The notes beneath the pieces are model-generated. The model saw only the letters and a list, made by a program, of their open reading frames with translations, did no database searches and was not told the DNA's origin. From a virus (taxonomy: Duplodnaviria > Heunggongvirae > Uroviricota > Caudoviricetes): a DNA stretch of 5,329 nucleotides. The translations under genes and the position numbers were made by a program. Shown here one piece after another: positions 1 to 5,329 of this stretch. The DNA lies in the IMG/VR virus record IMGVR_UViG_2529292735_000011. One strand, given 5' to 3'. Each line of letters begins with the position of its first letter. The stretch's first letter is position 1.

Positions 1-116
1 TGAGCGGCAATATCACGCACAGCGGCGGCAATTTCACCTCAAACGGCATTACCGTGCATACGCATAAACACGGTGGCGTGAAAGGTGGCAGCGATTCGAC
101 AGGAGGCCCGCGGTGA
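1..116 (+). CDS. V: Baseplate central spike protein gpV, C-terminal fragment (5' end lies outside the window)
   Basis: Frame starting at nt 3 reads ...SGNITHSGGNFTSNGITVHTHKHGGVKGGSDSTGGPR and stops at TGA 114-116. This matches my recollection of the P2 gpV C-terminus, and it directly precedes a gpW-like ORF in P2 gene order. The stop overlaps the next start (GTGA). Confidence 0.75.
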   Translation, partial: SGNITHSGGNFTSNGITVHTHKHGGVKGGSDSTGGPR

Positions 117-463
117 CAACCCGCTACACAGGAATGAACCCGGACGGAACGGGAAACCTGAACGATATGGAGCACCTGAAACAGTCAGTCAGGGACATCC
201 TGACCACCCCGCTGGCAAGCCGGGTTATGCGACGGGAATATGGCAGCCTTGTGCCTGATTTGATTGACGAACCCATGAATAACACCACGCGTCTGCAATG
301 CATGAGTGCTGCCGTGATTGCACTGGCACGATGGGAACCCCGCATTGCCCTGGATGCCATCGACGTTGTCTGGAAAGCGGGAGGCCGCGCCGGGGTGACG
401 CTGTCGGGCACTGTCATGCAGACCATGCAGAATGTTGAATTAACCATCACGCTGAGGGAGTAA
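113..463 (+). CDS. W: Baseplate wedge protein gpW (T4 gp25-like)
   Basis: 116-aa ORF with a GTG start at 113, preceded by AGGAGG at 101-106 at good spacing. Size and sequence (TTRYTGMN...SRVMRREYGSL...) resemble P2 gpW. Position between V and J fits P2 synteny. Confidence 0.85.
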   Translation: MTTRYTGMNPDGTGNLNDMEHLKQSVRDILTTPLASRVMRREYGSLVPDLIDEPMNNTTRLQCMSAAVIALARWEPRIALDAIDVVWKAGGRAGVTLSGTVMQTMQNVELTITLRE

Positions 464-466
464 ATC

Positions 467-1362
467 ATGCCCGCCGTTGACCTTTCACAGTTACCGGAAC
501 CCGCCATCATCGCGGAGCCTGACTTTGAGGCAATTCTGGCTGACACAAAGGCCATGATGATTGCGTCCTATCCTGCCGAACAGCGTGAAGCCGTTTCCGC
601 CGCGCTGGAGCTGGAATCGGAACCCCTGAACGTTATCGCTCAACCATGTCGTTTCGTGAAATGCTGTTACGCCAGCGGGTTAACGAGGGCGCACGCGCCT
701 GCATGTTAAGCCACAGCGCCGGGACAGACCTGGACAACCTCGCGGGAAATATGAACACAAAGCGCCTGGTTATCACTCCGGCAACGGATACCACCGACGC
801 GGTGATGGAGAGCGACACCTCGCTGAGACTGCGGGCGCAGCGGGCGTATGACGGCCTGAGTGTTGCTGGCCCGTCAGGTGCATACGAGTATTTTGCCCGC
901 AGCGCCAGCGGTCTGGTGCGTGATGCGCGGGCTATCAGTCCGTCTCCGGCAAATGTGACGGTTTCCATCCTGTCCACTGAGGGCGACGGCACAGCAACGG
1001 AGGCGTTGCTTAATACCGTTCGCGCCGTTCTGAATGCAGAGGACACCCGCCCGGTGGCCGACCGCCTGACCGTACAGAGCGCCAGAATCGTGACATGGCG
1101 GCTGAATGCAAAACTGTACTTTTACCCCGGCCCGGAATCCGAACCTATTCTGGCCGCGGCAGAATCGTCATTCAGGAAGTGGCTGGCTGAACAGGGGCTT
1201 ATCGGTCAGGACGTGGCGTTGTCCGCCATTGCTGCCGCACTGCATGTGCACGGTGTGCAACGCGTGGAGATAATCGAACCCACACAGAATATGGCCATCA
1301 GCGACATACAGGCAGCGCGCTGTGAGTCATTCACCATCAGTGAAGGTGGGCGCAATGAGTAA
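467..1362 (+). pseudogene. J: Baseplate protein gpJ (T4 gp6-like), interrupted by a -1 frameshift near 641-646 (pseudogene or sequencing indel)
   Basis: ATG at 467 follows the W stop by 3 nt. The N-terminal part, 467..~643, reads MPAVDLSQLPEP...ESEPLNVIAQ and then runs to a stop at 707-709. The homology continues in the -1 frame as (T)MSFREMLLRQRVNEGARA... in the ORF 646..1362. Joined across the shift the product is about the length of P2 gpJ and is collinear with it. The stop at 1360-1362 overlaps the I start (ATGAGTAA). Confidence 0.75.
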
Positions 1363-1886
1363 TTCACTGTTACCACCATCAGCCAGCAATTTCATGCGTT
1401 GTGCCGAAGCCGTCGGAACACGCATTACAGACATTCCGGTCGACCTCAACACGCTGTGGTCGCCGGACACCTGCCCGGTGCACCTGCTGCCTTATCTCGC
1501 CTGGGCGTTTTCCGTTGACCGCTGGGATCGCAACTGGCCGGAAGAGACAAAGCGACAGGTGATTCGTGATGCATGGCTGATACACCGACACAAAGGGACC
1601 ATCAGCGCACTGCGCAGGGCCATTGAGCCGCTGGGATACCTCATTCGCGTGTCTGAGTGGTGGGAGTTCGGCGGAGAACCGGGAACATTTACCGTTGAAG
1701 TCGGCACGCTGGACAGTGGCGTGACGGAGGAAATGTATCTGGAAATGGAGCGGTTGATTGCTGATGCCCGCCCGGTCAGCCGCCACACTGACAGGGCTGA
1801 ATATCATTCAGGAGATCCCGGGGGATATTTTCGCGGCGGCAGCAACTTACGACGGTGAAGTCATTACCATTTATCCGGACGATTAA
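1355..1886 (+). pseudogene. I: Baseplate protein gpI, probable +1 frameshift near 1784-1790 (contiguous ORF reads 1355..1858; homologous C-terminus continues in another frame to 1886)
   Basis: ATG at 1355 overlaps the J stop. The translation MSNSLLPPSASNF...LLPYLAWAFSVDRWD...HKGTISALRRAIEPLGYLI...EMERLIADARPVSRH matches gpI. After ...SRH the annotated frame gives an unrelated tail and stops at 1856-1858. The frame shifted by one reads LTGLNIIQEIPGDIFAAAATYDGEVITIYPDD and stops at 1884-1886, 2 nt before the H start; this resembles my recollection of the P2 gpI C-terminus. Confidence 0.6.
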
Positions 1887-2432
1887 GCATGAGTACCACA
1901 ACACGAAAATTTAAAACCATTATCACTGATACTGGTGCCAAAAAATTAGCTCAGGCTGCCGCGCCAGATGGTAATCCTGTCCGCCTGACTCATATGGCCG
2001 TGGGCGACGGTGGCGGCACGTTGCCCACACCAGACAGTAAGCAGACCCGTCTGGTGCATGAGGTGTGGCGACATACTGTTAATCGCGTCATCCTGGACGC
2101 AACACATCAGAACCGCATTATTGCGGAGCTGGTTATTCCTCCTGAAACGGGCGGATTCTGGATCCGGGAAATTGGTGTATTTGATGAGCACGGCGATTTG
2201 ATCGCGGTGGGCAATACTGCCGAAAGTTACAAACCAACCGTTGCCGAAGGATCCGGACGTGCACAAACATTTCGCACCATTCTGACCGTATCCAGCACTG
2301 CCACCGTGGCGCTTACCGTGGATAACACCATGGTGATGGCCACAGTGGATTACGTGGATGACAAACTGAAAGAGCATGAACAGTCACGACGTCACCCGGA
2401 CGCCTCGCTGACCGCAAAAGGCTTTTGTTCAA

Positions 2433-2910
2433 CTCAGTAGCGCCACTAACAGCGTGTCTGAAACGCAGGCTGCAACGCCGAAAGCAGTAAAGGCCGCGTA
2501 TGATCTTGCTAACGGGAAATATACTGCGCAGGATGCCACCACAGCGCGAAAAGGCCTTGTCCAGCTCAGTAGCGCCACCAACAGCGATTCTGAAACGCTG
2601 GCGGCAACACCAATGGCGGTAAAGGCAGCATATGACCTTGCTAACGGGAAATATACTGCGCAGGATGCCACCACAGCGCGGAAAGGCCTTGTCCAGCTCA
2701 GTAGCGCCACCAACAGCACGTCTGAAGCACTGGCCGCAACACCGAAAGCGGTAAAGACAGCATATGACCTTGCTAACGGGAAATATACCGCTCAGGACGC
2801 TACGACAGCACAAAAAGGGATTGTCCAGCTAAGCAGCGCGACTAACAGCACATCTGAAACGCTTGCCGCGACACCGAAAGCAGTGAAAGCAGCTAATGAC
2901 AATGCGAATG
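2433..2910 (+). repeat. In-frame 132-bp tandem repeat inside H (about 3.5 copies, 44-aa unit [44 protein letters not shown])
   Basis: Unit starts at 2433, 2565, 2697 and 2829, all exactly 132 nt apart. The first three copies are near-identical at nucleotide level; the fourth diverges after about 60-80 nt. The repeat also generates the spurious antisense ORFs 2313..2813 and 2429..2719. Confidence 0.9.
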
Positions 2911-3668
2911 GTCGGGTACCTTCTGCCCGTAAGGTGAATGGTAAGGCGCTTTCAGCGGATATTACACTGACGCCGAAAGATATTGGTACGCTTAACTCAA
3001 CAACTATGTCATTCAGCGGTGGTGCTGGTTGGTTCAAATTAGCAACGGTAACCATGCCGCAGGCGAGTTCTGTTGTTTCAATTACGTTGATTGGTGGCGC
3101 GGGATTTAACGTGGAGTCACCTCAACAGGCAGGTATATCTGAACTTGTTCTTCGTGCGGGAAATGGAAATCCAAAAGGTCTTACTGGTGCGTTATGGCGA
3201 CGGACATCGGTTGGATTTACTAATTTTGCATGGGTGAATACATCCGGTGATACCTATGATGTTTATGTTGAAATAGGTAATTACGCCACAGGTGTTAATA
3301 TTCAATGGGATTATACCAGTAACGCCAGCGTAACGATTCATACTTCACCAGCATATTCTGCTAATAAGCCGGAAGGATTAACGGACGGTTCTGTTTATTC
3401 GCTGTATATTTCGCCTCATGAACTTTATCCGGTTGGCGCACCGATCCCTTGGCCATCAGATACCGTTCCGTCTGGTTATGCCCTGATGCAGGGGCAGACT
3501 TTTGACAAATCTGCATACCCGAAACTTGCAGTCGCTTATCCGTCAGGCGTGATCCCTGATATGCGTGGCTGGACTATCAAGGGCAAACCTGCCAGTGGTC
3601 GTGCCGTATTGTCTCAGGAACAGGACGGCATTAAATCGCACACCCACAGCGCCAGCGCATCCAGTACT

Positions 3669-3758
3669 GATTTGGGGACGAAAACCACATCGTCGTTTGA
3701 TTACGGTACTAAAACGACCAGTTCATTTGATTACGGCACAAAAACCACAAATAGCGCA
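3669..3758 (+). repeat. Three tandem 30-nt / 10-aa units in the H distal region ([10 protein letters not shown] / [10 protein letters not shown] / [10 protein letters not shown])
   Basis: Read directly from the translation and nucleotides. The copies differ at synonymous positions, so this is an older protein-level repeat rather than a recent duplication. Confidence 0.55.
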
Positions 3759-4036
3759 GGAGCTCATTCACACAATATACCTGTTGGTCACACTGGCGCG
3801 GGGAATGGTGTATCAGCCGGTTATAACGCTGCGTTAGGTACTGGTACCACGTCGAGCGCAGGAGGGCATGCTCACAATGTATATATCGGTGCCCATAACC
3901 ACACTATCGGCATTGGTGCTCATGCCCATTCTGTCATTATTGGTCCCCACGGACACACCATCACCGTTAATGCTACGGGGAACGCAGAAAACACCGTAAA
4001 AAACATCGCATTTAACTATATTGTGAGGCTTGCATA

Positions 4037-4615
4037 ATGACATTCAGAATGAGTGAACAATCACGGACCATAAAAATTTATAATCTACTGACCGGAACCA
4101 ATGAGTTTATTGGTGAAGGTGATGCACACATTCCACCTCATACAGGTCTGCCTGCAAACAGTACCGATATTGCCCCGCCAGATATTCCGGCTGGCTTCGT
4201 GGCCGTTTTCAACAGTGATGAGGCATCGTGGCATCTCGTTGAAGACCATCGGGGTAAAACGGTTTATGACGTGGCATCAGGGGACTCGTTATTTATTTCT
4301 GAACTCGGTCCATTACCGGAAAATGTTACCTGGTTGTCGCCGTATGGAGAGTATCAAAAGTGGAACGGCACATCCTGGGTGAAAGATGCAGAAGCAGAAA
4401 AACTGTTTCGGATAAGGGAGGCGGAAGAAACAAAAAACAGCCTGATGCAGGTAGCCAGCGAGCATATTGCGCCACTTCAGGATGCCGTAGATTTGGATAT
4501 TGCAACGGAGGAAGAGGCATCGTTACTGGCTGCATGGAAGACATACCGGGTATTGTTGAATCGTGTTAATACAGCGGTAGCAGCGGAAGTTGAGTGGCCA
4601 GTCGCCCCACAATAA
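4037..4615 (+). CDS. tfa: Tail fibre assembly chaperone (lambda Tfa-like, with a P2 gpG-like C-terminal end)
   Basis: 192-aa ORF whose ATG overlaps the H stop (TAATG), with GTGAGG upstream. The sequence [54 protein letters not shown]... is very close to my recollection of lambda Tfa. The C-terminal ...[26 protein letters not shown] resembles the conserved end of P2 gpG. It sits immediately downstream of the fibre gene, as cognate chaperones do. Confidence 0.85.
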
Positions 4616-4621
4616 AGAGAA

Positions 4622-4651
4622 AAAGCCATCGATTGAAATATAGATGGCTTT
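4622..4651. terminator. Bidirectional rho-independent terminator between the convergent tfa and acetyltransferase genes
   Basis: Perfect 9-bp inverted repeat AAAGCCATC (4622-4630) / GATGGCTTT (4643-4651) around a 12-nt loop, with a GC core GCCATC/GATGGC. On the minus strand the stem is followed by TTTTTCTCTTTATT; on the plus strand by TTTATGT. It lies in the 43-bp gap between the two stop codons (4615 and 4659). Confidence 0.6.
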
Positions 4652-4658
4652 ATGTACT

Positions 4659-5231
4659 CTATTTATACAATACAACACCGCTCTTTTTAGTTATATATGT
4701 GCAGTTCGATGGTATATCTTTATTTATAAAAGACATTGCACCTATTTTTACATTATCCCCAATTTTACGTGATAATCCAATGATGCAACAATTAGCTCCG
4801 ATATCAACGTTACTACCAATTTTTACTCTTGAACCAGGCATGTCACCATCTATCTGCCCAATGGTAGTATTCTGCCGTAACACCAGATTTTCACCAGCAT
4901 CAACAGCAAAATGAACAACAATTCCAGCATGATGGGGAATTGTTAACCCTTTTCCAATATTTGCGCCCAATCCAATTTCACAACCAAATTTGTTAATTAT
5001 TTTATTGTTTAACTTTTTGGCTGCTGTCTTATGTAATTTATTACCATTAATATACATTTCGTTAGCCAACCGCCACCAGAAAAGGAAATTCCGGTTACGC
5101 TGTTTTTTCTCTCTTAAAAGCCTCCAGATATCCATACGTTTCCGCCGAATTACTTCATATTTCCAGAAGTTTTTTAAATTAGTAGAGTTCCCAAATAAAA
5201 CAAAGTGAATTGCCATTAAGTAAGACAGCAC
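4659..5231 (-). CDS. Hexapeptide-repeat (left-handed beta-helix) O-acetyltransferase, WcaB / serine acetyltransferase (CysE) family-like; AT-rich cargo gene
   Basis: Minus-strand ORF with stop TAG at 4659-4661. The six-frame track extends it to 5264, but the best start is the GTG at 5231-5229, which lies 6 nt after a strong SD AAGGAG (5243-5238). An ATG at 5216 is an alternative. The core ...GCEIGLGANIGKGLTIPHHAGIVVHFAVDAGENLVLRQNTTIGQ...VKIGSNVDIGANCCIIG...IGDNVKIGAMSFINKDIP has the [LIV]-G-x-x-x-x hexapeptide periodicity and the I-x-H-H-x-G-I-V-V motif of the CysE/WcaB/NodL transferase family. It is visibly AT-rich with A/T-rich codons, unlike the upstream phage genes. Confidence 0.75.
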   Translation of the reverse strand: MLSYLMAIHFVLFGNSTNLKNFWKYEVIRRKRMDIWRLLREKKQRNRNFLFWWRLANEMYINGNKLHKTAAKKLNNKIINKFGCEIGLGANIGKGLTIPHHAGIVVHFAVDAGENLVLRQNTTIGQIDGDMPGSRVKIGSNVDIGANCCIIGLSRKIGDNVKIGAMSFINKDIPSNCTYITKKSGVVLYK

Positions 5232-5282
5232 GATAATCTCCTTAATTATTATTTCAGACCACACATGTTATAAGGTTAAGAG

Positions 5283-5311
5283 ATTATAAAATCCTGTTGT
5301 TTGTTATTCAA
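5283..5311 (-). promoter_or_regulatory. Candidate sigma70 promoter for the acetyltransferase gene
   Basis: On the minus strand: TTGAAT (plus-strand 5311-5306), a 17-nt spacer, then consensus TATAAT (5288-5283), about 50 nt upstream of the GTG at 5231. AT-rich DNA produces such hexamers by chance, so this is sequence-only support. Confidence 0.45.
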
Positions 5312-5329
5312 AAACAATTTTCTGAGAAG

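Follow-up and report, generated by a model that had tools for sequence, protein, structure and literature searches.

Tail-fibre module of the window and the break in gene H

The window analysed here, a stretch of 5,329 bp, is the whole of contig AIHM01000016.1 in the draft assembly GCA_000250455.2 of E. coli DEC14C (2012). From its sequence it reads as the tail-fibre end of a P2-like prophage, in which a V-W-J-I-H module is followed by a tail-fibre assembly gene, and its gene order is the same as that of the V-W-J-I-H-G tail module of phage P2. The features of the window are as follows.

1-116, plus strand: 3' end of gene V (baseplate spike), within which the contig begins; PF18946 Apex, and annotated in relatives as 'phage baseplate assembly protein V'
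113-463, plus strand: gene W, intact, a GPW/gp25 baseplate protein of 116 aa; PF04965, and GPW/gp25 in the annotation of relatives
467-1362, plus strand: gene J, baseplate J/gp47, with an A missing at 641 (CTCAAACC to CTCAACC) according to alignments
1355-1886, plus strand: gene I, P2 tail protein I, with an extra C at 1788 (CCACATGAC to CCACACTGAC) according to alignments
1889-4037, plus strand: gene H, P2-type tail fibre, 715 codons after removal of one T; Pfam and exact protein match
2416-2900, plus strand: tandem array of a 132-bp (44-codon) fibre repeat, 3.7 copies; Tandem Repeats Finder and four PF03406 matches
2423-2426, plus strand: TTTT run, with one base more than relatives; sequence, alignments and allele surveys
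2438-2440, plus strand: out-of-frame TAG stop, lying within the CTC AGT AGC (L-S-S) codons of the repeat unit
2454-4037, plus strand: C-terminal H ORF left by the frameshift, 527 aa with a GTG start, called mechanically
4037-4615, plus strand: tail-fibre assembly gene (G/tfa type), intact; PF02413, E=5.8e-39, with the exact protein on 581 contigs
4659-5231, minus strand: hexapeptide-type (serine) acetyltransferase gene, annotated in relatives as serine acetyltransferase; GC 0.36

The acetyltransferase gene, with its low GC content, has the look of cargo. It matches Hexapep weakly, with 24 bits where the cut-off is 27, and many related prophages have such a gene in the same position, between the fibre-assembly gene and gpU. 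Some relatives have a macro-domain gene between H and the fibre-assembly gene, for example at 4245-5147 of the locus from O157:H7 strain 493/89 (L128) and in matches H5 and H6; this gene is absent from the window.

As deposited, the H ORF spans 1889-2440 and encodes 183 aa. In the frame of the ATG at 1889, positions 2414 to 2440 read GCA AAA GGC TTT TGT TCA ACT CAG TAG, or A-K-G-F-C-S-T-Q-stop, which is the reading given in an earlier note made from the sequence alone. The extra T reported there is confirmed by sequence reading and alignment: the window has TTTT at 2423-2426 and relatives have TTT. H is out of frame past codon 179 and ends at the TAG of 2438-2440, and deletion of one T from the run gives a single open frame of 715 codons that ends at 4037. 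No Shine-Dalgarno-like sequence was found in the 13 bases between this stop and the GTG at 2454 (CGCCACTAACAGC). The earlier note had also observed that the next frame continues like the downstream repeat copies, and copies of 'aaaggccttgtccagctcagtagc' are indeed present at 2551 and 2683; the recombination-prone tandem repeat that it described beside the indel is the array of 132-bp units at 2416-2900. Its placement of the indel at a domain junction needs adjustment. By Pfam, the indel is not on the exact boundary: at codons 179/180, it falls about 26 codons past the N-domain and 6-7 codons into the first PF03406 repeat unit.

Repaired H has the domain composition of an ordinary P2-type fibre. 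It comprises a PF12571 N-domain at residues 6-153 (E=6.7e-54), four PF03406 repeats of which the first starts at residue 173 (E=6.6e-79), and a PF07484 collar at residues 516-563 (E=2.5e-11), after which there is a His-rich C-terminal part. These elements lie on one polypeptide in the repaired protein and are divided over two ORFs as deposited. Bacteriophage P2 gpH likewise has a PF12571 N-domain, PF03406 repeats and a PF07484 collar, and is likewise followed by a PF02413 assembly protein; unlike P2 gpH, the deposited H of the window carries a frameshift. At the nucleotide level, P2 is about 80% identical over H query bases 229-1020 (window 2117-2908), whereas the C-terminal, receptor-binding half is not of P2 origin. 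Among phages, this half is best matched by the side tail fibre of Escherichia phage JL22, with 93% over H bases 1106-2149 (window 2994-4037), a match that appears to illustrate mosaic exchange of receptor-binding ends.

Repetitive sequence is found at two places in H. In its C-terminal part (window 3655-3990), a 30-bp tandem unit present in 2.3 copies is followed by repeated His-x-His motifs. The number of 132-bp units varies among H alleles, with the allele of a second DEC14C contig (L117) having one unit fewer than that of strain 493/89. Many 'partial' H proteins in the databases stop in this array because draft contigs break there.

Occurrence of the alleles and comparison with intact relatives

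Alignment of the window with an intact relative, E. coli A1, revealed exactly three indels over its whole length: in J, AAA has become AA at 641; in I, a C has been added at 1788; and in H, TTT has become TTTT at 2423. The two other frameshifts that the earlier note had placed near the one in H are thus the indels in J and I. The C inserted at 1788 is not in a homopolymer. A broken J homologue is known from another E. coli assembly, in which an 80-aa J fragment (P0032, STK56581.1), present on one contig only, results from a different 1-bp change about 10 bp downstream of the J lesion of the window and ends at the same out-of-frame stop.

The length of the T run was surveyed in several collections. 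We searched 5,426 complete E. coli genomes with a 101-base query (window 2375-2475) centred on the run. The junction was present in 1,372 of these genomes, 311 of them with at least 99% identity over the 101 bases, and no genome of the 5,426 gave a 100% match to the TTTT query. The best matches had 99.0% identity and a subject length of 100 bases, which implies TTT. A pattern accepting either TTT or TTT plus any base matched 109 contigs in IMG/VR, all with TTT, and had no match among the GTDB species representatives; the TTTT pattern was unmatched in metagenome contigs. Beyond the window contig, the TTTT allele was thus absent from the complete E. coli genomes, IMG/VR, the GTDB representatives and the metagenome contigs. 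The earlier note had also raised the possibility that H is normally encoded as two separate genes at this point. This arrangement is ruled out, as intact relatives have a single H ORF that is annotated as one continuous gene.

The truncated products are equally restricted. In a search of about 15 billion proteins, the 183-aa H product, the 167-aa I product and the 80-aa N-terminal product of J were each found on one contig, and the 527-aa C-terminal piece of H was likewise on one contig only. The 183-aa product is an exact match to EHX95794.1, 'H protein [Escherichia coli DEC14C]'. The repaired proteins are widespread: the 715-aa H is identical to a protein (P0033) on 34 other contigs, and exact copies of the repaired J (298 aa) and of the repaired I (176 aa) occur on at least 1,000 contigs each.

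Comparison with related prophages that have an intact H, which the earlier note had proposed, gave a consistent result. Nine loci encoding intact H were fetched, of which eight aligned cleanly over the full window; the ninth (L010) was not comparable over the first ~1 kb. Against all eight, the window has the same three indels. The two relatives L011 and L014 have no substitutions relative to window 1081-5329 (4,249 bases), and the only differences in this interval are two 1-bp insertions. All 26 substitutions that separate the window from these two loci are confined to positions 1-1080.

A second DEC14C prophage and a deletion in the O111:H8 lineage

E. coli DEC14C has a second P2-like prophage contig, the 11,942-bp IMGVR_UViG_2529292735_000009 (L117), and this contig is damaged in a similar way. 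When it is compared with the prophage of O157:H7 strain 493/89, which is intact, nine 1-bp indels are seen spread along its 11.9 kb, three of them within ~210 bp of its H gene. One is an A5 run where others have A4, located 8 bp upstream of the T run, and there are more frame breaks in H; the truncated H product (EHX96978.1, by exact protein match) was found on one contig only. The density of indels is about 1 per 1.3 kb in this contig and about 1 per 1.8 kb in the window. Four of its nine indels are not in homopolymers, and over both contigs five of 12 are not homopolymer length changes. The damage in the window and in the second contig is thus not a pure pattern of homopolymer miscalls.

The two contigs are also related in their sequence, the window being a short contig bordered by stretches that it shares with the second prophage. 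Both begin at the same base inside gene V, with the end of the second contig corresponding to window position 1. Over window 1-1100, the window has the base of the second contig at 18 of the 26 differences from L011, interleaved with sites of the L011 type, and three positions (112, 326 and 747) match none of ~125 related loci. An exact counterpart of this segment was not found in complete genomes, where the best identity was 98.5%. The segment is a patchwork of the two DEC14C prophage copies, as would be expected if reads from paralogous copies could not readily be told apart. The patchwork could be either a mixed consensus or the result of gene conversion between two resident prophages; evidently, the two copies were difficult to separate in the assembly.

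A frameshift at nearly the same place exists in another lineage. A 182-aa protein ending in TAKLCSTQ, which clusters with the 183-aa product of the window, is encoded on at least 118 contigs. Its allele, found in O111:H8, reads AAAACTTTG in place of the intact AAAAGGCTTTG, a 2-bp deletion of GG located 3 bp upstream of the T run (6526-6536 in L004, with the same deletion in L005-L008 and L127, which is CP077465.1; the site matches window 2417-2426). The deletion leads to the same shifted frame and the same TAG stop as the TTTT allele. The complete genome of O111:H8 strain 8E carries it, as do independent NCBI and Logan assemblies, and it is the sole lesion in H, with the rest of the prophage intact. 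In this lineage, PGAP marks the C-terminal part of H as a pseudogene, and gene callers begin the C-terminal piece at varying, distant positions. To judge from these sequences, the GG deletion is a real frameshift, and the fibre can genuinely be lost at this spot.

The H pseudogene of strain 8E (DEC8E) thus resembles the window in spot, frame, stop and a short N-terminal product, here of 182 aa, and differs from it in distribution: the strain 8E allele recurs on more than 100 independent contigs besides being in a complete genome, and TTTT is found on one contig only. A lesion that is repeated in independent assemblies of a lineage, as a pseudogene's is expected to be, is seen for the GG deletion and not for TTTT. 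The reality of the deletion does not carry over to the TTTT allele, and the agreement in position is inflated because the 182-aa protein was found only through the clustering of products of similar length. We considered whether TTTT, the GG deletion and the A5 run, three indels within ~10 bp, define a mutational hot spot. They were not counted as evidence, because the A5 run was found only via an adjoining search pattern and is one of nine indels on the second contig.

Origin of the extra T

In our view, the extra T very likely arose as an artefact of sequencing or assembly in the DEC14C draft. This reading follows from four observations: the alleles are private to one assembly, their repair is exact, no substitutions accompany them, and damage of the same kind recurs in the second contig. 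The T would have been added by a base-calling or consensus error during draft assembly, perhaps because the reads that went into the consensus of this repeated region were error-prone or mixed; low depth is another possible cause. Over- and under-called short homopolymers, together with stray single-base insertions, are typical of drafts from the pyrosequencing era. The DEC genome project reportedly used 454 and/or Illumina sequencing, which does not enter into the argument here. Indel errors in draft assemblies, which affect above all sequences repeated within a genome, are likewise private, occur mostly in short homopolymers or as duplications of a neighbouring base, and come without substitutions; as here, they are distributed over several genes and two contigs, and the repaired products are common proteins. 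Unlike typical homopolymer errors, five of the 12 DEC14C indels are of other kinds. The gene itself is most likely an intact P2-type H of 715 codons with TTT at this site. The judgement of the earlier note that decay or sequencing error was the more parsimonious explanation is borne out and, given the private alleles and exact repairs, can be narrowed to sequencing or assembly error.

The only serious rival is genuine decay, in which the T insertion would be a private mutation in a decaying DEC14C prophage that had acquired one inactivating 1-bp indel in each of H, I and J. Decay of prophage tail genes is known, indels also arise slightly more readily in vivo in short runs such as A4-G2-C-T3, and a genuine frameshift, the GG deletion, has become fixed at nearly the same site in the lineage of O111:H8 strain 8E. 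We nevertheless regard decay as improbable, since the divergence from the closest relatives takes the form of two insertions and no substitutions in 4.25 kb. In mutation-accumulation studies, E. coli acquires spontaneous indels at roughly one-tenth of the rate of substitutions, and the chance that both of the first two changes would be indels is therefore ~0.01. A phage can be inactivated without a hit in each of three neighbouring genes, no allele of the window is shared with any other genome, and the second contig would require nine further independent frameshifts. The large deletions and IS insertions that are usual in decayed prophages are absent from the two contigs. A related proposal goes further, and we give it still less weight than simple decay: TTTT would be real in DEC14C and, together with the GG deletion, would mark A4-G2-C-T3 as a recurrent site at which resident P2-like prophages lose the receptor-binding half of the fibre and keep the baseplate-attached N-domain, with full-length fibre perhaps persisting at a low level through +1 slippage on UUU_U.

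Readings in which the run has a regulatory role seem to us highly improbable. The earlier note had suggested that a homopolymer slip could in principle switch expression of the receptor-binding part of the fibre, with the run acting as a phase-variable contingency tract in which slips between three and four bases turn that part on or off. As at known contingency loci, a surface-recognition protein goes in or out of frame when a homopolymer gains or loses one base, and the indel is located close to where the variable part of the fibre begins. However, the suggestion is unsupported: the run has only 3-4 T, far too short for such a tract, and all other sequences have only TTT. Known contingency tracts are usually of 7 or more bases. 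The run showed no variation in length among the ~1,370 complete genomes with the junction, the 109 viral contigs or the metagenomes, and the contig also has unrelated frameshifts in J and I. Translation around the break, either through +1 slippage of tRNA-Phe on UUU_U at the ribosome (UUU UGU read as UUU-skip-GUU) or by deliberate expression of H as two polypeptides, has an equally slight chance of being correct. From the sequence, UUUU would permit perfect re-pairing of tRNA-Phe and would restore exactly K-G-F-V-Q-L, and there is an AAGG immediately upstream. Yet a programmed site, such as the prfB/RF2 type of +1 frameshift, would be conserved in homologues, and every relative examined has TTT and a continuous ORF. 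Judged by eye, the UGU that follows is not a stop or a notably slow codon, and the AAGG, one base upstream, is simply part of the K-G codons, which intact alleles have as well. As for two polypeptides, the GTG at 2454 is not preceded by a Shine-Dalgarno-like sequence, and in the GG-deletion lineage the C-terminal piece starts at varying positions and is a PGAP pseudogene.

Considered as biology, then, the frameshift in H is almost certainly not a real feature. Even a real insertion would only add another private pseudogene to a prophage; such pseudogenes are common and hold little general interest. The probable artefact serves chiefly as a warning. The database entries EHX95794.1 (the 183-aa 'H protein') and EHX95795.1 (the 527-aa 'phage tail fiber repeat family protein') are most likely the two halves of one ordinary gene, and the same caution applies to the split J and I entries of DEC14C. 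The H, J and I fragments of this strain should not be taken as pseudogenes, split genes or switches.
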